60,000 bases of DNA, taken from Schmidtea polychroa (Eukaryota). Position 1 is the first letter of the stretch, and every line of letters begins with the position of its first letter. The notes under the pieces were generated by a model. That model ran no database searches. It was not told the DNA's origin and worked only from the letters and a program-made list of their open reading frames with translations. The position numbers and the translations under genes are program-made. Below, piece after piece: positions 1,449-23,462 of the stretch. Location: NCBI GenBank assembly GCA_044892525.1, contig CM097885.1, positions 14,386,001-14,446,000 on the forward strand, written 5' to 3'.

Positions 1449-2007
1449 CTAAAAATATTCAAGGCAAAACTTTAACAAAAAATTCTAAATAATATACTTT
1501 AAATATACACTCAAACTAAAATTTATTAACACATTCACACTCATCATCTCCGCATTTCATAACAATTTCAACAACATGATCTATACAATCGTTATATACA
1601 CGCGGTTCAGTATCCGTAAATTCCTCCATAGGTTCATCAATTTCTTAAATGATTTCCTCATCATCTTCTTGAATGTTTTCTTCATCAATTTGTTCAGTTT
1701 CATCAAATCCTGAATCTTCACTTTCTGCTACCCAGTCTAATGCATTTGTAACAGATAATATGTCCTCCATTTTTACACCAGATATTTCTGCTAATTTTTC
1801 CAATAAAAAGTTTATTACAAATTCGAAATATTAAATAATTCGATAATTAACTAATCATATTAACCTTTTTCTGTAGTCATTATTAACACTTTAAAACTAT
1901 AATGTATATTTGTTTATAGAATGTCTTTGTTAAAGTTTTGCATTAATATAGAAAATAAGTGAAAAACAAATATGACTAAATACATTTATTAAATACATCA
2001 ACATTTA

Positions 2008-2427
2008 TTAAAATATTTGTGAAAGTCTAGCAGACATAATTTTCCAAATTGGAGAATACAAATCATTATTATCAAATTTATATCCTTGGATTGCAATTGT
2101 TATATACCAATTTTCGTTTTCTTTGAAGCTGATTTCATCAAAGAAATCATAAAATCTTGCATATCGGTTGTTGAAAAATGCATGTTGATTACATGATAGA
2201 TTCGTATTCAACCGTTTGAAAACCTCATCAATAGATTTAATATCTATCATTGAAAGTGTACCGGATAAGAATTGAAATTGAGTAGGAATTAGCTTGATCG
2301 GTGACACCAATTTCATATTTATTTCTTCTTTTAAAAAATACATTTTGTAGTTGTGGAACATTTGAACAGGTTGTACAAGTTCTGGAACAACTTTTGGTTT
2401 TTCAGTGCTTGAAATTTTCTTTGTCAT
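2008..2427 (-). CDS. Intact 139-aa Maverick accessory ORF, unknown function (possibly OB-fold/ssDNA-binding)
   Basis: Uninterrupted ORF of non-repetitive composition inside the Maverick. The aromatic, beta-strand-like C-terminus (WYITIAIQGYKF..YSPIWKIM) is only suggestive. Confidence 0.55.
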   Translation of the reverse strand: MTKKISSTEKPKVVPELVQPVQMFHNYKMYFLKEEINMKLVSPIKLIPTQFQFLSGTLSMIDIKSIDEVFKRLNTNLSCNQHAFFNNRYARFYDFFDEISFKENENWYITIAIQGYKFDNNDLYSPIWKIMSARLSQIF

Positions 2428-3229
2428 CGTGAATTATGAATAAAATGAAATGGTACAGGGTTTTTATACTTATGACTAATGTTTATAATCCAATCAGATT
2501 GCAGCATGTCTTTGTTTTAATTGCATTCAAATTGTATTGATATTGCATTGTGACATGTTTTATATTATTACTACATAAAGTAATATTATTATTAAAATTA
2601 TTATTATTATTGTTGGTATTAAAATTATTATTATTATTGTTGGTATTAAAATTATTATTATTATTTTTCAATTATCTATAGAAAAAATAACGCTGAAAAC
2701 ATAAAGATTTATTAAATCAACCAAGGTCAACAATTCTGCTGAACTAATATGTTCTAAGAGCCTTCACTACAGCCCATTCCACCCACCGCTGATATCTATC
2801 GATGCAGTACGGGCACCTTTTGTTGCAGAGTGCTTCGGTGGCCATTTCATACTGCATTCTGTTTATCTTCACGTCCCATACGAACTCATTAAACAGATCG
2901 AAAATCCTGACCCTGGTTGCATTATATACTAGGTCAGGAATCTTCTCGGCAGATTGATCTTTTAATAGAATGTTAACCTCCCAATCATTACTACAGAATA
3001 CTTATCTGAAAATAAATAGTTATAAAAATGTGTTTAATAAATTAAAAATTTACCATGATGATCAATCTCAGCCAATGACTTTGCAGCACTTGGAATATTG
3101 TACATTTTGTAAAAAACTGTTAATAAATGAAGAAACATCATGTTTTAAACAATCAACAGCCAATGAGATATCGACCAATTAGAATGATGCATTTCAATTG
3201 CACTGAATTTGCAATCACATGATAAATAA

Positions 3230-3712
3230 TTAATTAAGTGATAATAAAAAATCTAAAAATTCCTTTCTTTCAATTATTGATTTAATTTCAGATACGATAT
3301 TATCAACTATACATTTGTAATCAATACTTTTTACTCCAAGAATTACTATCTTACCACTAGCGAATATATTAACACACATAGGGTTATATTTTATATATCA
3401 AAGCTGGAAATAATTCTAGTTCGTAAAAACATGGTATTAATTTAGCCAATTTATTTAAATTACAACAAAAGAAGTTACAGTTATCGATGGTATTTCTAAA
3501 TCATAAACATTATATTCACTAGCTTTGATTATTTCCTTACATCCCATAATTCTACATTTACCAGTTTTGAAACATATTATGGGATATTTATTACTTCTAT
3601 TGATAATTTGTTATGGTTTCCCCAGTGGAAATACCAGTTTTGATACATCAGCGTTTGTCCTGTAAATTATATTTGAAAGCCTTTTAATGAAATAATTATA
3701 AAACTCAGATAT
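3230..3712 (-). pseudogene. TATA-binding protein (TBP)-like gene inside the Maverick, disrupted (1 stop, 2 frameshifts, ATA at the presumed start)
   Basis: Manual translation: LSNIIYRTNADVSKL..P*QIINRSNKYPIICFKTGKCRIMGCK..DLEIPSITVT / NLNKLAKLIPCFYELELFPALIYK / YNPMCVNIFASGKIVILGVKS. Matches both TBP repeats (IFSSGKMVCTGAK; YEPELFPGLIYR..IFVSGKVVLTGAK). Confidence 0.85.
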
Positions 3713-3722
3713 AAAATTAAAA

Positions 3723-4343
3723 ATGGAATTAAGAAATGATGCAGTATACCAAATCGTTGGTCCGAGTGGTAGCGGAAAAACATTATTTGTTTGTAAATTA
3801 CTAAAATCAAATTTGTTCAAAACAAAATTCAACAATATTTATTGGCATAGGGGCACTGATGACGAAGAACATGGATTGACGCAATCAAGTTTCTGTCAAT
3901 TGAAAAACATGAAAATAGTAAAGGGTTTTGATAAAAACTGGTCAAGTCGTTTGAAGAAAGATGATGTCATCATTATCGATGATTTTTATCAAGAAGCTAA
4001 TAAAGAAAAGATTTTAATAATTTATTCACAAAGATCAGCAGACATGTTGTAACAGTTATTTTCATAACACAAAATCTATTTCATCAAGGTTGTGCACACC
4101 GAACACGTAATTTAAATGTACAATATTTAGTTATTTTCAAGAATCCTAGAGATGCAACTGTCATTGATTTTCTTGGACGACAAGCATACTCTAATAACCG
4201 TAATTTTCTTAACAGTGCATTTCAAGATGCTACGAAAATATGCATGGGTATATATTTCTCGATTTCACTCAACAATGTCCTGATGATATACGGGTAAAAA
4301 CAGATATTTTCAACCCAAAAGGTGAAAATCATGAAAACATATA
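3723..4343 (+). pseudogene. Maverick packaging ATPase (FtsK/A32-like), frameshifted
   Basis: Walker A GPSGSGKT and Walker B IIIDD; continues in other frames as VIFITQNLFH..RTRNLNVQYLVIFKNPRD..HGYIFLDFTQ. Confidence 0.93.
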
Positions 4344-4415
4344 AAACAACCAAAAGTTCCACCAACAACTTGTTATACTCCATCTAAAGAACTTATTACA
4401 GAAAATTTTCCTGCA

Positions 4416-4808
4416 ATGAATCTTATTTCGAAAAATCCTAAACCTAAACCTAAAAGTAAAACCAATAAGAAAGTAAAAGTTGTTAAAAATCATCGGAGTT
4501 TCCCGTTTTTTAATACATTTTTAAAGGCACCAAGTATGAAAAGAAACAGTATTTTGCAATCATTCCCAAATTATGTTGTCGATGATTTACTCGATATTAT
4601 ACTTAAAGTAGTCAAAAGCAAGATTAAAATCAGTAAATATAAGAAGCAATTATTGAGTAAACATAGGAAACCTTTGCTATCATTAGAAAATAATAAAAAT
4701 CGTCAACAAATGAGAAAAATTATATATAACCAACAAGGGGGATTTATCGGTGCATTGATACCTTTAGCAATATCATTATTAGGTGGAATAATAAAAAGTC
4801 GATCATAA
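4416..4808 (+). CDS. Basic Maverick/adintovirus core (pX-like) protein
   Basis: Lys/Arg-rich 130-aa ORF ending QQGGFIGALIPLAISLLGG (putative protease site plus hydrophobic helix), directly after the ATPase. Confidence 0.75.
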   Translation: MNLISKNPKPKPKSKTNKKVKVVKNHRSFPFFNTFLKAPSMKRNSILQSFPNYVVDDLLDIILKVVKSKIKISKYKKQLLSKHRKPLLSLENNKNRQQMRKIIYNQQGGFIGALIPLAISLLGGIIKSRS

Positions 4809-4811
4809 ACA

Positions 4812-4895
4812 ATGGGTGCTAATTCTTCATTACCCGAAATTAAATTTAATATTAAATCTTCTTGTTGTAATGGAAAAGATTTGGACGAACCCTGA
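4812..4895 (+). CDS. 27-aa micro-ORF with N-myristoylation motif (MGANSSLPEIKFNIKSSCCNGKDLDEP)
   Basis: Starts 3 nt after the previous stop and overlaps the integrase ATG; MGxxxS motif and a CC pair. Confidence 0.5.
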   Translation: MGANSSLPEIKFNIKSSCCNGKDLDEP

Positions 4896-4968
4896 AGATG
4901 AAGCCGGTTTCGGTGGAGTGGCAAAATTAAAGAAAAGAGTTCCGAATTCGAAAAAAGAAACCCAGAAA
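4870..4968 (+). pseudogene. Maverick retroviral-type integrase, N-terminal fragment only
   Basis: MEKIWTNPEDEAGFGGVAKLKKRVP resembles the conserved Polinton integrase N-terminus; truncated at a deletion junction. Confidence 0.75.
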
Positions 4969-5118
4969 AATCGGCTGGTATACGTAAACCAAGAATACTT
5001 GAACATCATCAACAAATGTTCATATATACTAATATTATTGAGCCCATCATTGTTGGCGATTCCAGTGTTTCTCTTTTGAAATCGGTATGGATTGGAAAAT
5101 ATGAACACGATGAAGTTG

Positions 5119-5200
<82 letters not shown>

Positions 5201-5342
5201 TAATCCCATTTATTTACCAATTTCAAGCTCATGTATAAACAATATAGAAATAAATATTCGTAACGATAGTAGAAACCTTATAAACTTTCCAAAAGATTCG
5301 AAAACTCATTTGACATTACATTTTCGTAAAGTAGATGGCTAA
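4969..5342 (+). pseudogene. Maverick minor capsid (penton-like) protein, C-terminal fragment with (TA)n expansion
   Basis: FIYTNIIEPIIVGDSSVSLLKSV..NPIYLPISSSCINNIEINIRND..THLTLHFRK; (TA)n at ~5122-5198. Confidence 0.85.
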
Positions 5343-5586
5343 TTTTGATATTATTAGTATGTAATCTGGCTGTGAATTACCATATTTCGTTGGTAAACAG
5401 TACGGATCAGGTTGGTTAAAAACAATAGGGAGATTTGCATTACCTATTCTTAAACGTATTGGTAGTTTTGGTATGAAAGCTGCTAAAGACGTGATTATGA
5501 ATGAACAGAAAATATTACCATCCCTAAAAACAAATGCTTTAGCTGAGTTAGGGAAGATTCGACCTGGAGTTGCTGGTATGTTTTAA
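5335..5586 (+). pseudogene. Maverick small core protein with QxGxG-type protease site, internal stop
   Basis: MANFDIISM*SGCELPYFVGKQYGSGWLKTIGRFALPILKRIGSFGMKAAKDV..., overlapping the minor capsid stop. Confidence 0.7.
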
Positions 5587-5658
5587 AAAGATACGCCTCC
5601 CGCCCCGCTCATGCTCCAAAACGTAAAGGTCATGGAATATAGCATGTATTTATTACAG

Positions 5659-6468
5659 GCTTATGTAAATTTCGTTTAGATCTATTTATTTCATGTTAAA
5701 ATGTTGAACGCGAAACCTTTAAATATTTCATGATTAACCCAATAACGTACTTGATAATAAGTACATTAACCTAAATCGTTCAATTATTTATGTGTTGAGG
5801 TCTGTAAATTAAAATAAATTAAAATGAAATTTAGGTTGAAAATTTAAATAAAAAGTAAGTGAAGAAAAAAGACAAATAAAAGCGTGATCATGCACAGAAT
5901 TGATAGTAAAGCAAAGTATGATGGAAGCAGTATTAGGAAATGGAAAAAGCAATTGCGAAAGGAAAGAATCCGGAAATCCGAGAAAAATCAATAAATTGTA
6001 AAATCATCGAAATCGAATTGGGAAAACGGAACAGGTATAGATTAGCTAATGATCAACAAGATGAAGATTAGGGATTTATCAGAAAATGGTTAAAAAGGGT
6101 CGAAAAGCGTTCAAATGTGTTAAAACAGAAAATATTAATTAATTAATTAATTGGCTTATAGAAAACTCGAGCTAATAGGAAACCCGAGCCAGTGGAGAAC
6201 TCGAGAGATGAAGGAAGCTCGAGCTGTGTATACAAAGAGAAAAGTAAATAGAAGGAAGATTTGGACCCATTATTGTGACACAATGATTAATGGGAAAATT
6301 TCAAGGAGAAGCTAGTGCGTGCAGAAAGGCGGGGCGGGCCATTAATTATCTTTGTTCGTTGGACTATTTTGTATGACAGCCAAAGCAGATATGTGGACTC
6401 GAATGTCAAGTGAGAGATTGGCTCGGTAATACCCATTTGTCATCCCGATTTCGAAAAGAATATAAGGA
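5659..6468 (+). repeat. Segmental duplicate of ~28639-29447 (flank plus 5' part of a solo LTR starting TGTTGAGG at 5793)
   Basis: Near-identical sequence, including ~134 bp of flank outside the LTR. Confidence 0.92.
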
Positions 6469-6556
6469 ATGAGTAGGTCCTCTGCAGCAAGCACCCCTTC
6501 CCCTCTGCTGCAGAGTGCCACACATATATTTTTCAATACAAATAGGTAGATCCAAT

Positions 6557-9500
6557 CAGGGGCGCGCCGAGCTGTTAGGCCGCTTGAGTGCAAAATAATT
6601 TCCCGCCGCTCTTCATCCTTGCTGCAAAAATGTTTCTATAATCCAAAATAAAAATAACATTTAATTAAAGTAAAAATTAAACTAACTACGGAAGAACACA
6701 CATATCACATGCAATAGTTTATGAAAATTATAGTTTATTAATCACAAAACAGATAAGTTTAGGAAAGTTATAGTTTAGTACACACAAACAATAGAAAGTT
6801 TATGAAATTAATAGTTTACTACTCATACAAAAGAGACTTTTCTTGCCTTGTTCAAAGCAAATTGTGAAATTAAGTCATGCATATCTAAATTATCTAGGAT
6901 TTCATGTTCTATTGAAATTATTGATATATTACTTAAACGTTCCTGGAGCATAGTTGATCGTAAATAATTTTTAATTATCTTCAATTTTGAAAACGATCTT
7001 TCACCTGTTGCAACTGAGATTGGTAATGTTAATAGAATTCTGGTCACAATAAATATATTTGGGAATGTTGCCTGAAGATCATTTTGTAAAATATATAATA
7101 ATATAGATTGAGGTTTAATGTCTTCTTCTTTTAAAAATACCTTTATAGTTTTTATCTCTTCGAATAAATCAATTCCATTAATATCGGACTCATTTCTTTG
7201 TTCGTCAGTTAATTTCAAATGTAAATCTTTGCAGCTTTTCAAAAGTATTTCTTCTGTTATATCTTTAATATTATACATAAATCCAAATATATCATTATAC
7301 GATTTTAACGCTTCGAATCTTGTTGTAATTGATACTAATGCTTGGTTGATAATGCAGAAATAAAAGTTAATTTTAAAATTTGTTTTTGGATCTAATATTG
7401 GTTCATCCTTGCCTTCATAATCAAAATTTGTTGTTTTTCTTCTTATTCTTAAACGTGAAACTTCTGGAAATTTAGGTTCTACGTGTAATTTTTCGGCTAA
7501 TTTACTAGCTGATGTAAGCATTTTTTCAAATCCATTATCATTACGACAATTTTTAAAAAACTCTATTAAATCATCTAACGCGGTAACGCTTCTATTGATA
7601 TCGGTGTTTGGGTTCTGTAATATTTGACTAACAACATTAATTTTCATCAAAATTTCATGCCAAATAACAATGGAACATAAATAACGATAACTTGATATTT
7701 TTAGTGAAAGAGAATTTGCCACATGTCTGGTTTTAAAGTCAATCAATTGATCATTTGATATTTCAAGAAGAGATTTATAAATTTGTTCAGTATGATACCT
7801 TAGTGGTTGTATGGCATCAATTCTACTTGACCACCTTGTATCGCTCAGGGGTTTTAATTTTAAATTCGGTAAATATTTTACTATTATCGCCCATCTTTTA
7901 GTTGACGCCGAAAAAACTACATATATTTCTTGTACTAAATCAAAAAATGTTACTGTTTCATGTGAAATATGTGCCGCATCATTAACAACTAAATTTAAGC
8001 TATGAGCAGAACATGGTACAAAAAATGCTCGCGGGTTGATATTTACAATTCTTTTTGTAAGCCATTATGCTTTCCTCGCATATTGGCACCATTGTCATAT
8101 CCCTGTCCACGCATATTATGAATATTTAAATTTAGATTTGAAAGTTCTTTTGAAACAAATTCGGTTAACCCCTCGCCGGTAGTATTTGTTATTTGATAGA
8201 AACCCAAAAAATGTTCACGTATTTAAATTTATTTTTATTCCAAATTCACAATTCTTATTACAATAGTTAATTGCTCAGTATGACTAACATCTGGTGTGCA
8301 ATCTAATATAATTGAAAAATATTTTGCTTTTCTAATTAAATCTAATATAGCGTTTTTAATACTTGTGCTAATAATATTGATAATTTCGTTTTGTATTTTA
8401 TCCCCCAAATAATGAGGCATATATTTCAAATTGTTTCGAGACTTTTCAATCCGTTGTACATGCTCTTGCATAATAGGGTCAAATCTGGCAACCATTTTTC
8501 TGCTTTCAAAAAGTTTCCATTGTTATTTGCATATTATTGATTTGACTTTCCTCTTATGGCAAGGCATTGCCTAGAAAGATATTGAATAATATATATTATT
8601 CGTTGAATTACTTCATACCAATACTTTCGTTCGGCTTGTAATAGTCTTTGGTTCGCACTATCAACTGTAGTATTATTTTTTAATGATTTATTTAACAATA
8701 TCCATTTTTTTATATTTTCATTATGAAACTGACTTTTTTCATGTCGAGACAAAGTTAACGATAAATGTTGCCAATCAGAAAAACCAGATGAATCGGATAG
8801 ACTGCTTTTATCACTGAAATCAAATATCCTACAGCAAAAACAATACACAGAATTTTTAGTAATTGAATACCCAAGCCATTCGCGTTGTGTTTCTTCTCCG
8901 TTCGGCAATTGTCTTAAATAATACTTTTTTGAAAATTTACGCCCACTTGACAATGGAAATTCGAAATTTTTTATTTGAATCGCTCCTCTTTCAACAAGGT
9001 TACGTGCGGTAATACTTGATATATTATTTGCCCACATACCTGGATCGTCCAATATTATATTTGCTTCACAATTTTCGTCAGATGAATTTCCAACAGATGA
9101 ATTTTCAGACCGAATTTCTGTAAAAATTTCATATTCATTCTCATCGCTATCGCTAGAACTTTTATTATCGTCAACAGATATGGTAACATTATTTTCTATT
9201 TCTATAGGGGTGCTTGACGACGCTGTTGGTGTATTTTCAAAATATTTTGAAAGCGAATTCTTCAAACTCTGCATTGATTTCAGTTTATTTAAACGCTGCT
9301 TTTTGTATTGTGCGCCAGATAAACGTTTTGTTTTTCTTCCGGTCATATCTAATGGTGCAAATAATACAAATAATAAATATCTAACGTACATCATAACACT
9401 TATGTTTAACAAAAATATAGAAAAAGTTGCATTATACTTACCAAATTCTATAATACAATCCTGCTTTCTAATCTAATATTATATATCTCTATTTTTTTTT

Positions 9501-10437: not shown

Positions 10438-10809
10438 TTACTTTGAACCAGTGTATTTAGTAACAGCCTTCGTTCCTTCACTGACAGCATGTTTGGCCAA
10501 TTCTCCAGGCAAGATCAATCGGACAGCAGTTTGGATCTCTCTGCTGGAAATCGTTGATTTCTTGTTGTAAGTTGCCAACTTACTAGCTTCAGTTGCGATT
10601 CTTTCGAATACATCATTAACGAAGCTGTTCATGATTGACATGGCTTTACCAGAAATTCCAGTATCTGGATGAACTTGTCTGAGAACTTTGTAGATATAGA
10701 TACCATAGCTTTCTTTACGTTTGTGAAATCTCTTCTTTTTGTCGGATTTCACAACTTCCTTGGAAATCTTCTTTACTGATTTTGTAGCGACTTTTGTTGA
10801 AGGAGCCAT
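10438..10809 (-). CDS. H2B: Histone H2B (copy lacking the 3' stem-loop)
   Basis: Intact 123-aa H2[66 protein letters not shown]. Confidence 0.98.
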
Positions 10810-11355
10810 TTTAATCTGAATTTTATAAATGATAAAAGTTCATTCCTTCCTTATATATGATTATCATTTTTTTAAATATATTACGTTGCGGTATTTTCAA
10901 TGATAAAATTAGAAAATTTAAATTTTGTTTCTGAAAAAAAACTAATTCAGTAATAATTTTTTATTTTACAAATAGAACAAAATGTGCAATTATTACAGAA
11001 ATGAAAACCTGTTTAATTATTGAAATGTTTTTTTAATTAAAATTTTTTATAAATCATCCGCTTTTATGCAAATTATTTCCACGCAAGAAATTATTACGCT
11101 GAGATAACATTTTAAAATTAAAATTTCTTTTAGAAACTAATATTAATAATTAATTAATTTTTGTGAGTTGATGGATATGTCCCTTCCACACCATATCCCA
11201 TCCATACCACAACCCCTCCCTGGAGATTATTGTTAAACTCGTAATTTTATAACGAACAAGAAAATATATAGTCTATATATAGAAAAAATGCATAGTTTCC
11301 ATGGAAATGAGCTCCAAAGTCTCTAACTTCAACATCAAATACCATAATTTAACAT

Positions 11356-13089: not shown

Positions 13090-14760
13090 ATTAAACAACA
13101 ATACACACTTAAGTCTGTAAATATTTCAACCATTTTGAAGTTGTCGAACTGTTTCTTGATCCATCATATCACTCTCATAATCATCAAGTTCATAGATACC
13201 TAAATAATACCCAAATGCAAGATTAGTATTTTTCCCTACCCACAATCGCTTATCATCATTGTTTGACAAGGAGATTTTTATATTTTTAAATGTGTAAATT
13301 TGATGGTTACGCGACCCTATCCTAGATTGTGGTACTTAAAATATCTCGTTAGAGTTATAACAATCGAGATATGATTGATGATTCCACTAAATTAATTCCC
13401 TTCGCTTTCATACTAGTCTTAGTGCCTAAAAGACTAACATTTTGGTCTGAAGAAAACCCATTCACTATATCCAAGTCCTTTACTCTCATCCTTAAACTTA
13501 CCGATAACAGAATCGAGTTTTCTAGAATATAAAGGATGTGAAGGATCATAATTGGATGTGTCAAGCAGATTATCTCTAATCATTGGCGGTAATAATACAT
13601 TTAATTTACAGTCTTTAATTTCTAAAAAGAAAGAGTCTGTATCTCCGGAAACAATATTTATTTTACAATGAAACTCGCACCTATACTTGTCCAATTCAAT
13701 ATATTGAAGTTGATACATGCGCAGTTTAGATAGATCTAGTACAGACTGCCCAATATAGCTGGGTCTATCTAAACAGATTTGATCCTTGTTCAAATGTTCC
13801 GCAACTAAATCACAAGTAATTGTGATAGATTTTCTAAATTAAGGTTTTGATGCATATGTAATAAGCTTTTCTGCGGAGTTACAAAGTCTCAAATTCATGC
13901 GCTTTTTTAAATTTTCGACTGATTTACCATATAGGCTATTATTGTAAAGTTTAAATAAATCTCTATAAAGCTCGCTAGTAGAAGTCACACCTAATTGCGT
14001 GTTTTTGTCAATATATGTTTTAAAAATTGATGCTTGTTTAAATTTAATGGCACGATGAACATTTACAACGACTGCCCCCCAATTCAATATAAAATTTTAA
14101 AAGTCTCTAATGAAGAATATGGTTCTTCTTGGCCCAATGCGTGAGCATCAACTTTTCAACTTTAGAACCGGGTGGACATATCTTATCCGGAGCAAGAGGA
14201 AAATCTTTCAAAAAACCATGCAACAGATTAGGGATATTTATATCGACTTCCATAGTGTAACCATATGAAAGTGTTTCAATATCCGAATTTATACACTCAT
14301 GCAATATAGATTCAAGATTATTATAAACCCAAGTAAAATCGGCATAAGGAAGTTTGTGGCTAAGAGCCCAACCATACAAATTATTAATATCAATATATAA
14401 TAATTCTGTGTTCTCCGATGTTGAAACATGATGCTGGTTAACAAATGTCAAACCACCTCGTATTCCTCCCTCATAAAAATTGAACATTTCCATATCCTGC
14501 AAAAGTTCTATCGGCTTTTGTAACGTAATGAATGCTGATGCCTATGACATACCAGGAATGCCATAGAAATTCAGAGGTTTAAGGCCATTGTAAGCAATGG
14601 CCTTTGCGCGGAATTGTTGGAAATAATCAGCCAAGAGAAATACATCTAATTTAAGATAAGTTAACAAGTAGTTCAAAAGATTATTACAATTCTGCCGAGT
14701 CCAAATTTGTTAGGCAGTAGCATATTCATCTGCCGTAACACCATCCAAAAGTAGGTAATT
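13090..14760 (-). pseudogene. Protein-primed family B DNA polymerase of Maverick/Polinton type, fragmented
   Basis: YLKLDVFLLADYF, GGIRGG, YIDINNLYGWAL, FKLYNNSLYGKSVEN, YIGQSVLDLSK, GDTDSFF, IGKFKDE, NDDKR; multiple stops and frameshifts. Confidence 0.95.
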
Positions 14761-14989
14761 AGAGGCTCCCTGGATCAAGCACCCATGGCGGGGGGGTGGG
14801 GGTTTTGCTCCAGGAATTTCTTTCTGCTTTTTGATTATGCAATTACTCCAGTAATATTTTGTAATATTTTTCAATACATTTAGATAGGCCCTATAGAAAA
14901 AAGACCAAGATTTATCAGTCTATAGTGAGGGGGTCTCCTTGGTCCTGGGATTTTCAATACAAAATCCTATTATCACTAAAAAAGCATAG

Positions 14990-15872
14990 TAACTTCTTCA
15001 GCCACTCGATTCTTCTTTCTTTCGCTCCTTCTTGTGAATGTAGTTCGACTCGATGAGGTGATAGAAATCTGGCGATTTTATATGGGCCATCGTATTGCAT
15101 ACCATCCTTGTGCCTGTTCTGCGGCTTTTTACGTATGAGTATCTCCTCCCCTACCTCGAAAACACGAGTGCCCATCTTTGTCTTATCCATAGCTCTCATA
15201 GTGTCTGCGGCTTTACTCGAGTTAAATCTCGCGTCTTCGATTCTTTCGCTTCTTGATATCTCAGCTTGTTTCAGGTTAGAGTGTAGGTTAACACTCCGTC
15301 CATAAATTATCTCAAATGGTGATAAACCTGTAGCACTTTGTCGACTGCTATTTATAGTGAACTCTATTCTGGGTAGACGTTCGTGCCAGTTTCTCTCTTC
15401 ACATCCGCCTGCCAATGTTGCTGTAATAAGATCTCTTATCGTTCGTATGGCTCTTTCGGCTAAACCATTTGATTGGTGTTGATAAGGTGAGCTGAATTCC
15501 TGTTTGATTCCAAGTTTCTGGAGCTTCTGTCTTAGGAAATTCCTTTCGAAATTTCGGCCTCTATCTGTTAAAATACTCTTCGGTTTTCCAAAACGATAGA
15601 TCCAACTATTAAGTATTGTTTTGAAAATGGTCCCTTCGTCTTGCTTTGTGATTGCAGTTAAAGAAATCAGTTTGCTATAACGGTCCACCATTACTACCAT
15701 ATATTTTTTTTGGCGTTTATTTCCATGTAAGCCACATCTATAACAATCTGTTCTAGGAATTCAGAGCTATACTTTTTCCATAGCTTCTGTTCTTTGGATA
15801 GTATATATATATCTAATCTTTGATTTTCCTTCCTTAGCTTCTTCATGTCTTGTTTGACACTGGGTGCAAACC

Positions 15873-15873
<1 letters not shown>
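14990..15873 (-). mobile_element. Partial second copy of the Gypsy integrase region with an internal deletion
   Basis: Near-identical to ~17495-18760, but ~370 bp are missing at ~15770. Confidence 0.92.
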
Positions 15874-15924
<51 letters not shown>

Positions 15925-15927
<3 letters not shown>

Positions 15928-16410
15928 GGGTTATTGAGTTGGTGACAATATTTGTAAATTCAAACCTTTAATCTGGCTCCAAAGCGTGTTTATTAATTCA
16001 CAATTCAACACTCTCGAACACAATAAGCTTTATTAATATCCACACGTAATAGTACAAATTTCAATTACAACCAATTAACTATAACCAATTTATCACACAG
16101 AGCTTATTTCGACACTACGTGAATAGCCCTTTCTGTAATAACAGCAATAATCACTAGCTGTCAACTACTCAATCACAGAATATGCTGATCGATTGTTCTA
16201 TTTGCTTTGAACACACAATTTATTTAATCCACCTTTACTTTATATTCAATTTTATACAAGATTCTTGTCACTTCTCTTTTCACTCTGTTTTGATTCCCCT
16301 TTTTACTCTGTCGTCTCTAATTTTACTCTACTTTTTGCCTCTAATTTCGTTTCGTTTTGCTCTCAACTTCGTTCTGTTTCCCTTCTACTTTTCGCTCCAA
16401 ATTTGTCACA
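15925..16410. repeat. Truncated LTR-family fragment bounded by (ATT)n tracts (15875-15927 and 16411-16486)
   Basis: Similar to the start of the solo LTR at 55009 and to 59497-60000. Confidence 0.75.
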
Positions 16411-16416
16411 TTATTA

Positions 16417-16486
<70 letters not shown>

Positions 16487-16487
<1 letters not shown>

Positions 16488-17318
16488 AGATAACGCCAAT
16501 CAAATACATTTTTCACGATATATTTCGGCATTTTTCGACAGTCAAATAAATTAAATAGTGTGAGCAAGGATGATGAGCCTAAATTTGTGTTAGTATTGCC
16601 GTACTCAGAAGGTTTTAAGGATTATAAAGTGAATATAAGAAAGCAGTTAGGCAATTTAAACTATAGGATAGTGTCAACTTCATGGAAAGTACGCAATATG
16701 TTTATTAATAAGTAAAAAACTCTGGTCGAATTGTGTTCCGATCTCGTTTATCAGTTTACATGTAATGGGGGTAATGCCACATACATTGGAGAAACTTCCC
16801 GCCATCTCTGTATTCGAACTCAAGAGCATTATAGACCGAAGGCATTGACCCATATTGGTGAGCACAATAAGGGCTGTAAGATTAAAATAGGAATGTCTGA
16901 TTTCAAAATTTTATAAAAAAATTTCGATAATTATTGGGAACGTGTGATTTGTGAGGCGTTGTTGATAAAATCATTGAATCCGAAAATTAATGTGCAGAAT
17001 GCAGTGAATACTTGTGTTGTAAATGTTTTTAAATAATTTTTTTTTCTTGTATATTGTATGTATTGATTGTTGTGTTAAATTAAATAATTAATAAAATTTT
17101 ATTAAATTAAATTTTGAATGTTTAAATTTTAAAAATAATATATTAATTTAATTATAATTTTTAAAAATATTTAAATGTTTTTATTAAATAAAAACGTTTT
17201 ATATAATTAATAAATTTGTTTAAAATCCTTAATTTACATAGTTATTATATCCCACCTAATGATGACAGGAAAACTGTCGAAATATATCGTGAAAAGAATG
17301 TTTGATTGGCGTTATCTT
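16487..17318 (+). mobile_element. Penelope-like element 3' fragment (GIY-YIG endonuclease remnant) with inverted terminal pLTR pieces
   Basis: VLPYSEG..LVYQFTCNGGNATYIGETSRHLCIRTQEH..EALLIKSLNPKINVQ. 16487-16527 is the inverted copy of 17278-17319. Confidence 0.9.
17253..17291 (+). ncRNA. Minimal hammerhead ribozyme motif of the Penelope pLTR (core mutated to CUAAUGA)
   Basis: CAC-CTAATGA-T-GACAG-GAAAA-CTGTC-GAAA-TATA-TC-GTG: stem I, stem II, palindromic tetranucleotide and UC cleavage site. Confidence 0.7.
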
Positions 17319-17480
17319 AGTTAAATCCATCTTTAGATCCATCTTTAAATTTGCAGCAAAAATCTTGGAACTAACAATATATATTTAATCAAAGAATTTA
17401 TAAATAACAAGTTTTAATTAATTCACAAAAACCGCAAATTCCTAATTATTAAAACAACAAGATATCTAACTCACCCCTTC

Positions 17481-18675
17481 TTAAGACTTTTTCCACTTCT
17501 TCAGCCACTCGATTCTTCTTTCTTTCGTTCCTTTTTGTGAATGTAGTTCGACTCGATGAGGTGATAGAAATCTGGCGATTTTATATGGGCCATCGTATTG
17601 CATACCATCCTTGTGCCTGTTCTGCGGCTCTTTACGTACGAGTACCTCCTCCCCCACCTCGAAAACACGAGTGCCCCTCTTTGTCTTATCCATAGCTCTC
17701 ATAGTGTCTGCGGCTTTACTCGAGTTAAATCTCGCGTCTTCGATTCTTTCGCTTCTTGATATCTCGGCTTGTTTCAGGTTAGAGTGTAGGTTAACACTCC
17801 GTCCATAAATTATCTCAAATGGTGATAAACCTGTAGCACTTTGTCGACTGCTATTTATAGTGAACTCTATTCTGGGTAGAAGTTCGTGCCAGTTTCTCTC
17901 TTCACATCCGCCTGCCAATGTTGCTGTAATAAGATCTCTTATCGTTCGTATGGCTCTTTCGGCTAAACCATTTGATTGGTGCTGATAAGGTGAGCTGAAT
18001 TCCTGTTTGATTCCAAGTTTCTGTAGCTTCTGTCTTAGGAAATTCCCTTCGAAATTTCGACCTCTATCTGTTAAAATACTCTTCGGTTTTCCAAATCGAT
18101 AGATCCAACTATTAAGTATTGTTTTGAAAATGGTCCCTTCGTCTTGCTTTGTGATTGCAGTTAAAGAAATCAGTTTGCTATAACGGTCCACCATTACTAC
18201 CATATATTTTTTTTGGCGTTTATTTCCATGTAAGCCACATCTATAACAATCTGTTCTAGGAATTCAGAGCTATATCTAGGAATAAATGTTTCCTTGGTTC
18301 TTGTCTGATCGATCTTTCTCTTAGCGCAGATCTCGCAACATTGTAAACAGAGTTGGATTGTTTCTTGCATTTTCGGCCAATAAAATATCTTTTCCATATA
18401 ATGAAATAATTTCTTAACTCCAATGTGACATAGTTCTTCATGTAGTGTTGTTGTTAACAGGCCTGCAAATGTTTCTGGGACTAACATTAAGATATTTTTG
18501 TTCTTTTCTACTGTTATTAATCCTCCATAAATTTGTGTATTTTTTACGTTAAAAGGAAAACAATTCTTTTTCTCCCGTGTACATCCATTTTCCAATATCT
18601 CTCGCAGCTCTCGAAACCGAATGTCCTTTTGTTGTTGTTCCCATACTTTTTCCATAGCTTCTGTTCTTTGGATAG

Positions 18676-18706
<31 letters not shown>

Positions 18707-20600
18707 AATCTTTGATTTTCCTTCTTTAGCTTCTTCATGTCTTGTTTGACACTGGGTGCAAACCATACTTTTTAATCTTGATAGTCCATCTGCATTTGAG
18801 TGTTCTTCGCCTTTCCGATATTTTAGTTCAAAATCATATTCCGACAGGTTAGCTAACCATGTTTGGAATTGCGGACTGATTGGCGTTTTTGTAGTGTTCA
18901 TGAAAACCAATGCCTTGTGGTCGGTGCGAATTATGAATTTTTTTCCGTACAGATATTCTCTAAAATGCATGACGTATTCATGTACGGCGAGCAGTTCTTT
19001 CCTGGTTACACAGTATCCCTTTTCATGTGATGACATATGTCTCGAGCCATAAGCTATGACAGATTCTTCTCCATCTTCTGTAATTTGACTCAAAACTGCA
19101 CCAATGGCTCCGAAACTAGCGTCTGTGTCTAAGATAAAAGTCCTATCTTCTCTTGGAAAATCAAGGATAGGTGCTTCGCACAACCGTCTCTTCAGAGTTT
19201 GGAAGCTCTCATTGCATTCTTTAGTCCAATTTATATCTTTATCGCATCCAGATGTTGCAGCGTATAATGGTTCGGCGATTTTGGCATAGTCTTTGATGAA
19301 TCTTCTATAGTAGTTCGTTAATCCGAGAAACGATCTCAATTGTTTTGAACATTTTGGTACTTCTGCTTTCTCGATCTCTTCCACTTTCTTCCTGTTTGTC
19401 TGGATACCCTTCTCGTTAATTGTGTGACCAAGGAAACACAATTCTGTTTTATTGAATTTGCATTTTTCTGGATTTATCTTAAGTCCTGCCAATTTAATTC
19501 TTCTGAATATTTCCCTTAATAGCTCATCGTGGTCTTTTTGACTTTTACCATATACCAAGATATCATCTAGATAAACTACTACTCCCTTGAATAGCATTCC
19601 TTCTAGAACTGTGTGCATCAGTCTCTGGAATGTCGCAGGAGCTGTTGCTAAGCCAAACGGTAGTCTATTGAAGCAAAATTGTCCTTCTCTTGTACTGAAT
19701 GCAGTCATTTCTTGAATTTCTGGAGCCAACTCCACTTGATAATACGCCTGACATAAACCGATTGACGAAAATACTTTTGCATTCGCGAGACAGTCTAGTA
19801 AGAATTTGGTGTTAGGCATAGGAAATGACTCTTTTTCTGTTATGGAATTTAATCCAGGATAATCTACACACATCCTGATAGATCCATCTTTCTTCCCTAC
19901 TATAACTAACGGGGCGTTCCAAGGACTCTTGCCACATCGAATAACATTTGCTTTCATTAACTCTTTTATCAGTTCTTTAATCCTTTTCTCCATGTGCATT
20001 GGTTGACGTCGAGGATGTTGCATTATTGGGCCTCCTGTTATCCGCATCTCATGTCGAACTAAGTTTGTAAATCCCAGATCGAATTTCGATGCCATAAAAA
20101 TTCCGCCGTATTCCCTGATCATTCCTTCAATATCTTTATTATTGTCACCTGCCATCGCCACTAGTGCTTTATTTATTCTTTCTTCATCAGTGTAAATTTT
20201 GTTTATCAATGACGTTTCTATATTATTGATTTTCACTAACTTAACTCCAAACTCTTTCATTGTATCAATGCCCCCTATGAATTCGGGTTTGATCTCTTTT
20301 ACCACTACTACTGTGATTTTTTTGGTCTTCTGATTCCATGTGGCCGGTATAGTCATGTATCCCATTGCTTATTCACCTCCAGTTGAAAAAACTCCGCACA
20401 ATAATATCATACTACGTTTAAGTTCTGGTTTGCCTATTTTCTCCCACAAACTCTTGCTCATGACTGTTAGTGATGCTCCAGAATCCCATAACATCTCTGT
20501 TTCGGCATTATTCAACATTATTTTACTCCAATTTCTTCCATCTTTCGTCTGGTACATCTCTTCTTCTGCCTCGCCTCTTCGTCGTTCATTTCTTATTTCA
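17481..20600 (-). pseudogene. Gypsy pol (protease, RT, RNase H, integrase), stop at ~20369 and frameshift at ~18205
   Basis: WDSGAS, LPFGL, YLDD, FILDTDAS, HHCC finger, ILTDRG..SNGLAER and GPY motif. Confidence 0.96.
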
Positions 20601-20604
20601 CAAT

Positions 20605-21900
20605 TTATTGTCTTGACTCCACCGACGAAATGAAACCCATGGAGTCGCTGTTGTTTTTTCCGTCTTCTCTCAATATAGTATATTTTTCAGGGACATTGTA
20701 TCTATCTTCAATGTCGCTGTGAGCAGTTCTGAAATCCTGGCTGTTTTCGGTGTAATCTCTTCTTTCAGATTTTGAATCTTCTTCTTCTATGCACGCTATT
20801 CTTTGATATCGGTGTGGAACCTCTTTCTGTAACGAAAAACAATCTCGGAAACCGTGACCTTCCTTGCCACATATCAGGCATTTATTTCCCAGTAGACACT
20901 CATACCTTCTGTGTCCCTTTTCGCCACAGCAAAAACAATCACCTACCGTTAATTTTGGGACCGATGCTTGTGGGAGTCCTCTACTTTCTTTATACAGCCT
21001 CCTTGCTATATTCTTCATGGATATTGTTGGCAGCTTCCTTTCTGAGCAATTCGGGATTCTCGCATTTCTCAAGAATTGTTCTCTTGGAGATTGTTCTCGA
21101 CGACCATGGTTATTTCCTTCATATTGTATTGGTCCGCGTATAGGATGTTCGTCTCTTCTTGATCTGTGGTGACTAAATCGGTCTTCTGATTGCCTTCTTT
21201 TTGGTGATGTAGGCATGTGATTTTGGGTATTCTGTTGAATTCTCATCTGTCCTCCCTCAGTCACGCTAGCGTATGTTCTTTGACCGATTGCTTTAACAAA
21301 TTCTGTTTTATGGTTTCCATTTTTGTTACTTTCAAAAGTTTTCGCCAATTATCTCGTTTCTTCAATTTTTGTTTCTGGTTTCGTCAATAGTATCTCCCGC
21401 AGTCTCGCATCGCGTGCTTTATTTGAGATGAGGTCTTGAACAATATCTTCTTCTGATCGTCCTGAATTTACAACTTCAGCTAAAGCTTTTCTTAGCCGTA
21501 TCTTAAAAGCTGCAAACCTTTCATCATCTTCCTGTTCCATAGCTGCCAATTCTCTGATTTTGTCAGTTATAGATTTTGTAATTGTGAACGTATTTAAGAA
21601 CCACGCTTTGGCTTTTACATCTGTTGTTTCTGTTTCTCTGACGTTTCCCCACAATGTCTTTGCTTCTGCCACTAATAACACATCGAAAGTGCTTGTCAAT
21701 CGCTGTCCATTTGTCAGCAACCATTCTTCTATATCTCTGATCCATTCTTCGGCTTCTTTTAAACCTCGTCCATCATATCGTCTGATGTTCAGTGTGAGCA
21801 TGTATTGGCATGATTTCGGTAGGCATTCCATTAGCGATTTTGTCGATTTCGAAATGGCGTTGATATTTTGATTTTCGGCTTGGTCGCCAGTTAAATCCAT
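20605..21900 (-). pseudogene. Gypsy gag with two CCHC zinc knuckles, in-frame stop at 21349-21351
   Basis: CFCCGEKGHRRYEC and CLICGKEGHGFRDC; two abutting ORFs in the same frame. Confidence 0.9.
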
Positions 21901-22031
21901 CTTTAAATTTGCAGCAAAAATCTTGAAACTAACAATATATATTTAATCAAAGAATTTATAAATAACAAGTTTTAATTAATTCACAAAAACCGCAAATTCC
22001 TAATTATTCAAACAACAAGATATCTAACTAA

Positions 22032-22380
22032 GTAAATTAAAGTAATGTAATAAGTAAATTAAAGTAATAATTTTTAAATTTATTAACAAAAAAATTTATT
22101 AACAAATGAAATTTTTTATGAAATAATTTTTAAAGTCAATTTTTAATAGAAATTTTTATTGAATATTTTTTAAGTTAATTTTAAATGAAAAGTTTTATGA
22201 ATTAATAATATTTCAACTAATACTATACAACACATAAAAATTAACTAGACACATAACTAAACCCATAAAAATTAACTAGGCACATAAAAATTAACTAGAG
22301 CAAAAGTAAAATATAAAATTTATTCAATAAGTTCTAATTGTTCTACGTGTAATTTTTCTCATTGCATTTCAAATACAAAA
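22032..22380 (+). repeat. Duplicate of the H2B 3' flank (~10121-10433) without H2B coding sequence
   Basis: Shared TTTATTCAATAAGTTCTAATTGTTCTACGTGTAATTTTTCTCATTGCA and the upstream AT-rich block. Confidence 0.85.
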
Positions 22381-23462
22381 ATTACAACCAATTCCCAAAA
22401 TATTTCGTTTCAGAAGATCTTGTAATTTTCTGTACACATTATTGACACCTTTACGGGTGCGTCCTCGAAAATTAGTTTTTGTGTTATCAGCCGAGAGCGC
22501 CAAAATTTTCTTATTCAAATTGTTGTCTGTTATAACTTGAAATAAGTGATTAGACAAAATGTCTGATGTTTCCCCTTCGATTGATTCCAAATTTAAAATC
22601 TTAATTTGAATACCGTTCTTAATATCGAAATACCTTACTAAAATTGGATAAAGTTTTATTTCAGTGTGATTCGATGCGCCTGATACAGAATCCAGATTTT
22701 CTGATAGCATTTTCTTGCAGTATTCATTAAATACGCTGGTTACGATAGACTCACATTTTGTTCGCGCACAAGAAAATTTTTCGTCACAAATTTTTTTTAA
22801 TAATTTAGTAGTACAGTCCATGCTGCGAAAACTTTGATTATGGGCTATTGGGTGAAAAGCGAAAGTATCCTCCATAACTGCCAATTTTTTTCATTAGTTC
22901 CAAAGTATTCCCTTTAAAAATGTTGTCAGTTTGGATTTTAAGCTACTGTGTCATGAGACGTTTTATGTACTTTAGTTTCAATGTGTGCCGTTATTAGACT
23001 ACGTCCATGAATTGCAATTGAAAATTCCCTATTGCAGATTGTGCATTTAACCAATGAGTTATACTTTCCATTTTTAACTACAATAAACGAAAACTCTTTT
23101 TTTAAATTTTCGTTTAAACAATTTTTTTTCTTTTGTTATCGCTCATATTTGAATTAATAATCTAAAAATTATATTATAAAATAATTAGTAATATATTTTT
23201 TATTTTGATTTTAAATAAATATTATAATCTGATATTATTTAAGTAAAATGAAAATTAAACTATAATAAATCAAATCACTATCAAAATAATTTTAAATATT
23301 TAATTAATAAAATTGAAATAAAATAATCTAAAAAAATGTTTTAGAAATACAAATGAGTATAAAATTATACAAATGAGTACTTTCAGAGTACAGGATTTGA
23401 AAAGAGTACGGTTTGCGAAAAAAGAGTACAAAATTCAGTAAATGAGTATAGTTGGTCACCTT
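22381..23462 (-). mobile_element. hAT-like transposon 5' fragment with transposase remnant
   Basis: HNQSFRSMDC..FSCARTKCESIV..LYPILVRYFD..LSADNT; the minus-strand terminus AAGGTGACCAAC has GAGTAC subterminal repeats. Confidence 0.75.

Follow-up and report, generated by a model that had tools for sequence, protein, structure and literature searches.

The window analysed here, a stretch of 60,000 nucleotides of Schmidtea polychroa DNA, carries on its minus strand, at positions 3230-3682, a pseudogene for a short protein resembling the TATA-binding protein (TBP). Three-frame translation, tblastn, DNA identity and a weak match to PF00352 identify this segment as a decayed copy of TBPL, a 154-aa TBP paralogue encoded by a high-copy Polinton/Maverick family whose full element measures 15.4 kb. 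Minus-strand translation of positions 3150-3800 placed the three motifs on which the first-pass annotation had relied exactly where they had been reported, with CFKTGKCRIMGCK at 3574-3536, YELELFPALIYK beginning at 3425 and IFASGKIVILGVK at 3367-3329. The same annotation had stitched the protein together from three minus-strand frames; three pieces are indeed needed (3610-3458, 3500-3387 and 3397-3233), and they alternate between two frames only. The start codon is gone, and one in-frame premature stop and two frame-shifting deletions interrupt the remainder. When the window was searched with an intact TBPL protein by tblastn, residues 2-154 could be followed from 3679 to 3233 with 76% identity. 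The last piece alone gave a weak PF00352 match (E 4.1e-4, 20.6 bits, under the cut-off of 22.9 bits), and a Pfam scan of the other two pieces gave no TBP match. The resemblance to TBP is not due to chance, since the DNA of the segment matches, at 92% identity, an intact 154-aa gene at another genomic site, and this intact gene scores 54.9 bits on PF00352.

The pseudogene lies within a Polinton remnant at 1517-5643 (plus strand), where blastn with a full natural copy aligned approximately 4.1 kb of the 15.4-kb element in five blocks of 82-95% identity. By comparison with the full element, this remnant is without terminal inverted repeats (TIRs), capsid gene and polymerase, and an internal deletion has removed element positions 5028-6775. 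On the minus strand at 2011-2427 is orf139, an open 139-aa gene that travels with TBPL (tblastn identity of 93% over 139 aa). An A32/FtsK-type packaging ATPase follows on the plus strand at 3723-4323 in three broken frame pieces (tblastn, 3723-4010, 4004-4258 and 4243-4323), the first of which has weak P-loop matches in Pfam. Located 3' of the ATPase is a homologue of orf164 (4344-4805, plus strand; tblastn identity of 94% over residues 11-164), a gene that matched no Pfam family at threshold. The plus-strand segment from 4870 to 5607 holds remnants, detected by tblastn, of the integrase (first 33 aa), orf355 (last ~100 aa) and orf120 (first 95 aa).

TBPL and the ATPase were correctly described in the first-pass annotation as standing head-to-head, and the A32-type identity of the ATPase was confirmed by Pfam and tblastn. 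The gap of only ~10 bp given there was too small, as 40 bp separate the former TBPL start from the ATPase start codon at 3723. This divergent intergenic region (3683-3722) is itself shortened; in intact copies of the three subfamilies found in the genome (a, b and c) it measures 92-128 bp. It also lacks the TATAAACAA box that intact copies have approximately 30-37 nt before the ATPase start. With the gene broken and the box gone, the window copy is incapable of the promoter role proposed below.

Other mobile sequences are present further along the window. To its right, a 413-aa ORF with a hAT dimerisation domain (6826-8064, minus strand; PF05699, E 3e-11) marks a hAT transposon. A fragment of protein-primed DNA polymerase B (pPolB) at 13198-14739 (minus strand; PF03175 fragment match, E 4.2e-5) belongs to another, more divergent Polinton lineage, with 45-67% amino acid identity by tblastn and 66% DNA identity. 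It lies on the strand opposite to that of the TBPL remnant and does not belong to it. Between the Polinton remnant and the pPolB fragment there is an open 133-aa ORF with a core histone fold (10441-10839, minus strand; PF00125, E 3e-21). A Ty3/gypsy-type retroelement occupies 14957-22890 on the minus strand, with matches to reverse transcriptase, RNase H, an integrase zinc-binding domain and an aspartyl protease. It includes two near-identical rve ORFs (14957-15760 and 17484-18263, both minus strand), which suggests a partial duplication or two nested copies.

Intact copies and gene content of the element

A search of the 781-Mb genome with the window DNA gave 1290 first-look candidates, and all 40 that were scored matched; the 39 scored matches besides the window itself showed 91-92% DNA identity to the window copy of TBPL. 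Among 29 other loci retrieved from the genome, 23 carry the 154-codon TBPL frame intact. The gene is therefore intronless, as had been proposed from the window alone, and the intact copies beside the ATPase that the first-pass annotation had suggested looking for do exist. These 23 loci encode 13 distinct proteins, with one identical protein shared by 10 loci, and the copies in the genome are 94-100% identical. The differences among them probably arose mostly after insertion, and comparisons of TBPL between subfamilies are probably saturated.

Two copies of the element with wide flanks align over approximately 15.1-15.4 kb at 97-99% identity, and the terminal 348-570 bp at either end of the element match in inverted orientation, which defines them as TIRs. 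The gene order between them is TIR, orf139 (minus), TBPL (minus), ATPase (plus), orf164, integrase, orf355, orf120, orf407, a gap, an ORF of 1377 aa and the second TIR. The intact ATPase matches PF04665 (Pox_A32) with 31.2 bits against a cut-off of 22.8. The integrase falls just below the cut-off of PF00665 (rve; E 2.1e-7, 31.5 bits against 32.6) and has a weak chromodomain match (E 6.9e-4) as well as similarity to an IS481-type transposase in NCBIfam (E 3e-15, far under the model cut-off). The pPolB assignment comes from a deletion copy, one ORF of which matches PF03175 with E 1.6e-17 and corresponds, at 99% identity, to residues 857-1272 of the 1377-aa ORF; when scanned whole, the 1377-aa ORF had no match to PF03175 in Pfam. 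In one locus of the same genome (L015), an internal deletion fuses the DNA just 3' of TBPL to the middle of pPolB.

Structural genes could be proposed as well. The structure predicted for orf407 (407 aa, pLDDT 77.2) matches capsid proteins of PBCV-1, SGIV, mavirus and Sputnik with E-values from 5e-15 to 1e-11, and a protein atlas provided a lead to the DJR-like family PF21738; on its predicted fold, orf407 is a double-jelly-roll major capsid protein. For orf355 the protein atlas gave a lead only, to Preplasmiviricota proteins and the Sputnik minor capsid protein, and orf355 is thus a putative minor capsid protein. Pfam and NCBIfam scans of the element ORFs matched no protease family. Taken together, the TIRs, pPolB, rve integrase, A32-type ATPase and double-jelly-roll capsid protein make this element a true Polinton/Maverick. 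The orf139 product has no relative in Pfam, NCBIfam or among PDB sequences. It represents a conserved family of approximately 110-140 aa, with another copy in the same genome at L039:2073-2489, and among 80 metagenome loci encoding TBPL relatives it adjoins TBPL in 20, on a side and strand that vary between lineages. This protein may be a partner of TBPL or another early gene.

Fold, family and origin of TBPL

Intact TBPL scores far above the gathering threshold of PF00352 (E 8e-15, 54.9 against 22.9 bits), with the match confined to residues 62-125, and all 35 of its sequence matches in the PDB are TBPs (best E 9.5e-17). An AlphaFold2 model built from an alignment of 42 family members had a pLDDT of 96.9 and a pTM of 0.86. 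When this model was used in Foldseek, the top 44 matches were all TBP, with E-values from 2e-9, and the next match had an E-value of 0.018. VIA-align superposed residues 1-142 on the whole TBP core (Z 12.7, rmsd 2.5 A over 142 aligned residues); 38 TBP entries reached Z-scores of 10.5-12.7 and the next, unrelated entry 6.2. The HMM and structure searches that the first-pass annotation had advised for the reconstructed gene thus revealed a TBP fold once an intact copy was used.

Both TBP repeats had been expected from the window reading, and in the model the second is complete and the first shortened. The model runs through a strand, three further strands and a short helix, and then a complete repeat. 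Residues 60-153 form a full TBP repeat with the strand-helix-four strands-helix topology. This topology is absent from the first repeat (residues 1-58), which has strands at 2-10, 25-28, 35-38 and 42-48 and a helix only at 54-57, so that H1 is missing and a helix of four residues replaces the long H2. Judged by this model, intact TBPL is a two-lobed TBP saddle with a canonical C-terminal repeat and a helix-reduced N-terminal repeat. Local alignment of the two halves by hhalign paired residues 33-50 with residues 106-123 (E 1.8e-5), which corresponds to a strand hairpin; global hhalign found no match between the halves, and significance is limited to this local hairpin alignment.

HMMER alignments place the YEPELFP and IFASGK motifs of TBPL on the corresponding motifs of the second TBP repeat, and YEPELFP and IF-x-SGK are nearly invariant in the family. 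In the stirrup, E91 and P92 are found in at least 90% of the family sequences and E93 and F95 in all of them. Fourteen columns are invariant across 42 TBPL sequences, including F38, F95 and F111, and F18 is nearly so. F95 and F111 align to positions of the paired DNA-kinking phenylalanines of TBP and F38 aligns to F111 by hhalign, with F18 placed by inference only. In cellular TBP, TFIIB binds at the EPELF stirrup, and TATA boxes are contacted at their 5' half by the C-terminal repeat. TFIIA and several regulators dock on H2 of the first repeat, and the upper-surface helices in general serve transcription partners. The loss of helices is specific to a lineage and not a property of the whole family, because members of a distant clade (L085, L088, L096, L098, L100-L106 and L109) keep a longer first half with extra segments at the H1 and H2 sites. 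From these alignments, the helix loss in TBPL of this genome looks like a later reduction within the family.

TBPL homologues of approximately 145-170 aa are common in metagenome-derived protein sets. A protein search found 97 of them at E<=1e-3 among 120 candidates, and in a representative library 1168 proteins reached E<=1e-3, 105 of them with E<=1e-10. A pattern search of JGI metagenome contigs matched 228 times, with a TBPL relative encoded in 151 cases, and the 80 loci that were kept encode proteins with 23-59% identity. In IMG/VR, TBPL relatives were almost absent, with one weak locus. At least one of six Polinton genes was found beside TBPL in 39 of the 80 loci, and in 29 of the 37 loci of at least 3 kb; in four of these 37, neither a recognisable Polinton gene nor orf139 lies beside TBPL. 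The linked ATPases are 30-75% and the linked polymerases 33-53% identical to the proteins of this genome. TBPL and the ATPase occur together in 29 metagenome loci, on the same strand in 27 and head-to-head in two.

A search of the whole genome with PF00352 produced 2998 first-look candidates; 150 of these were scored, and every one exceeded the cut-off. Host TBP (124 bits) and several two-repeat paralogues head the list, and the remaining scored matches fall into at least three TBPL subfamilies, with proteins of 154, 170 and 156 aa. In a maximum likelihood tree of 73 proteins (a quick run with rows hand-chosen from the homologue searches and the two-repeat rows unnamed), the short TBPL proteins lie on one side of a branch with SH-aLRT support of 100 and host TBP with its paralogues on the other. 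One row of 173 aa, labelled two-repeat by match count alone, groups with the short TBPL proteins. In addition to the canonical TBP of the host (L122), two-repeat TBP paralogues of approximately 166-215 aa are encoded by single ORFs in the genome (L125, L127 and L128), and these three group with cellular TBPs.

The phylogeny called for by the first-pass annotation therefore sets a TBPL clade apart from the host TBPs. The view taken there, that the gene has long resided in the element, is borne out by the three subfamilies in the genome, the linked relatives in metagenomes and the split with SH-aLRT 100. Linkage of homologues to Maverick genes, which it had named as a test, was found in the 39 metagenome loci. 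We conclude that TBPL is a standing gene of this Polinton family, kept and linked across a deep clade. Between subfamilies a and b (L134 and L136 versus L039), identity is 91-97% for the proteins of the ATPase, integrase, orf355, orf120 and capsid genes and only 58% for TBPL; going by these identities, element lineages seem to have swapped the TBPL arm through recombination.

The promoter box and its possible reader

Among 24 non-redundant regions upstream of the ATPase in the metagenome relatives, 23 contain ATAAAC between -65 and -20 of its start, compared to 0.8 in shuffled sequences and 0 of 24 in reverse orientation. In these 23 boxes, the hexamer is preceded by T (16 boxes), C (6) or G (1) and is followed by A in 21, which gives a consensus of YATAAACA, located 31-52 nt before the ATPase start, with unconserved flanks. 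Of the regions before the capsid gene, 5 of 7 contain the box as well, as do 6 of 14 before the integrase. Seven long loci contain 92 YATAAAC boxes, and 53 of these are followed by a same-strand ORF start at a distance of 20-110 nt, as opposed to 7.65 for random positions. Most genes of these elements other than TBPL are preceded, within a few tens of nt of the start codon, by a YATAAACA box in fixed orientation. All three subfamilies of this genome keep TATAAACAA before the ATPase even though the other intergenic DNA differs between them. In the element itself, the heptamer TATAAAC stands upstream of the starts of the ATPase (by 34 nt), orf164 (by 40 nt) and orf120 (by 101 and 56 nt). Its seven occurrences on the gene strand are not clearly enriched over a roughly estimated expectation of ~4.6, and the signal in the element is one of position and orientation, not of plain count. 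The part of the intergenic region nearest to TBPL contains a (TA)n stretch whose length varies (L004, L009, L134 and L136), and this shifts promoter spacing between copies.

TBPL genes have a different kind of upstream region. The box was found in 2 of 43 of these (shuffles 1.5), whereas TATAWAWR was found in 23 of 43 (shuffles 3.4) and CCAAT in 13 of 43 (shuffles 4.4). TBPL is not always outside the box regime, however, because in one lineage (L045, L048 and L050) it lies 3' of an acidic ORF that has its own box. Five distant ATPase loci from IMG/VR, which are without TBPL, showed no box (0 of 5); these are weak loci with uncertain start codons. As for transcripts, no sequencing run on record as RNA is listed with the element. 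Contigs of four runs whose RNA status is a guess and whose library kind is uncertain cover most of the stretch, and one of these four has A-runs and T-runs as loose ends near gene ends; such contigs cannot show starts.

We favour, with a probability of about one half, the interpretation that TBPL is the element's own core-promoter factor for the YATAAACA promoters and is itself expressed from a host-type promoter. The earlier suggestion that the gene directs the transcription of its own element is in this respect plausible and has indirect support from the conserved promoter box, although the copy in which it was made is dead. A fuller version, which we put forward more tentatively, is a two-step RNA polymerase II programme operating across the deep clade, in which host TBP would fire TBPL from a canonical TATA/CCAAT promoter and the helix-stripped TBPL would then redirect polymerase II to YATAAACA promoters at nearly every other gene. 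In the interpretation that we favour, the TBPL gene would be transcribed first by host TBP and RNA polymerase II, and its product would then bind the variant YATAAACA boxes, its canonical C-terminal repeat lying over their 5' half and its remodelled N-terminal repeat over the AAC(A) that is invariant at their 3' end. The retained stirrup would recruit TFIIB and polymerase II, and the packaging, capsid and integrase genes would thereby be turned on. Without upper-surface helices, TBPL could moreover escape the host regulators that dock there on cellular TBP.

The box might instead be read by the host, either by TBP through TATAAA or by a forkhead-type factor through ATAAACA, with TBPL acting on host transcription; TBPL could then compete, for example, for TATA boxes or for TFIIB, thereby biasing host transcription or shutting it down. 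We consider this unlikely, yet it deserves serious weight. TATAAAC contains a perfect TATAAA, which is present in 16 of the 23 ATPase boxes, so host TBP could read these T-type boxes, and ATAAACA presumably fits the forkhead core RYAAAYA. The retained YEPELFP stirrup would also suit a TFIIB decoy. No TBPL column co-varies with box type, as the two columns that separate the T-type from the C-type group are not convincing and the groups are partly clades. What speaks for TBPL as the reader is that the box is invariant at ATAAAC(A) and not at TATA. Six of the 23 ATPase boxes start with C and one with G, and a start other than T should weaken the binding of cellular TBP. Furthermore, the strict orientation of the box and its tight spacing from the start codon fit a core-promoter element better than an enhancer-type site, and the absence of the box from the five distant loci without TBPL points in the same direction, weak as this control is.

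A role outside transcription, as an architectural protein that bends DNA for replication, integration or packaging, for example at AT-rich TIRs, seems improbable to us. The TBP fold does bend AT-rich DNA, the TIRs of the element extend over 350-570 bp, TBPL adjoins the packaging ATPase in those 29 metagenome loci, and it has lost the upper-surface helices at which cellular TBP meets its transcription partners. The near invariance of a TFIIB-type stirrup across the family, by contrast, points to a transcription partner, as it would otherwise be hard to explain, and the gene-by-gene box offers TBPL a readier target than the TIRs do. Far less probable still is that the likeness to TBP came about by chance, through frame stitching in AT-rich DNA, or through a recent retrocopy of host TBP at this single locus, the alternative that the first-pass annotation had raised. 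Its one point of support is that a single window piece of three had a Pfam match, and this below threshold. Chance and retrocopy are excluded by the PF00352 scores of the intact copies and of all scored genome candidates, by the unambiguous fold, by the position of host TBPs across the SH-aLRT 100 branch and by the linkage of homologues to Polinton genes in unrelated metagenome contigs.

How Polintons and Mavericks are transcribed, silenced and reawakened has so far been little understood. If our interpretation is true, a self-encoded TBP and a gene-by-gene box would provide a concrete switch consisting of one small protein and one 8-nt site, and the element would have converged on a solution also seen in herpesviruses and giant viruses with their late-gene TBP-like factors. 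The reduced N-terminal repeat would be a natural experiment on which surfaces of TBP are dispensable in promoter recognition. For annotation, thousands of TBP-like matches in this genome are accounted for by transposon genes and not by host paralogues.

Compared to cellular TBP (PF00352, which covers TBP/TRF of eukaryotes and the TBP of archaea), TBPL has the same saddle over both lobes and a canonical C-terminal repeat carrying both conserved motifs. It differs in length (154 aa versus a core of ~180), in the first repeat without H1 and with only a vestige of H2, in a Pfam match restricted to the second repeat and in forming a separate deep clade encoded by mobile elements. A TBP-like gene in an element of Polinton/adintovirus type has a precedent in Starrett et al. 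2021 (PMC8502044), where the Figure 5 legend has a 'TBP' gene drawn in MELD viruses or elements with adintovirus-like PolB; the premise of the first-pass annotation that such genes were unknown in Polinton-type elements is outdated by this legend. The gene named there and TBPL are probably of the same family. Section 3.4 of that article and its main-text passages on TBP, TATA, transcription or promoters contain no analysis of fold, distribution or promoters, and full-text literature on TBP in Polintons, Mavericks or adintoviruses, or on their promoter motifs, yielded that legend alone. Another article, PMC12220804, was rejected as a precedent since it had matched through an author's name only.

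Among viral proteins, the best structure matches of TBPL are TBP-like proteins of Nucleocytoviricota (21 Foldseek hits in BFVD, E 1.4e-7 to 1e-3), such as the putative TBP of Heterosigma akashiwo virus, TFIID-like proteins of mimivirids and an asfarvirus B263R homologue. These proteins differ from TBPL in their size of 190-500 aa and share only 9-22% identity with it. Moreover, Nucleocytoviricota are large viruses with their own RNA polymerase, and no RNA polymerase subunit was recognised in the 15-kb TBPL element. The BcRF1/ORF24/UL87 family of herpesviruses shows a weak likeness in Foldseek (BcRF1, E 8.2e-3; U58 homologue, E 5.2e-3). TBPL is probably not a member of this family; there is no sequence relationship, and the fold matches are weak. 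The herpesvirus proteins are also much longer (577-1005 aa), work in a multi-protein complex and read another box. In beta- and gamma-herpesviruses, nonetheless, the viral TBP-like protein of a nuclear DNA virus reads a non-canonical TATA variant before late genes, and in its possible mode of action this would be the closest analogue of TBPL.
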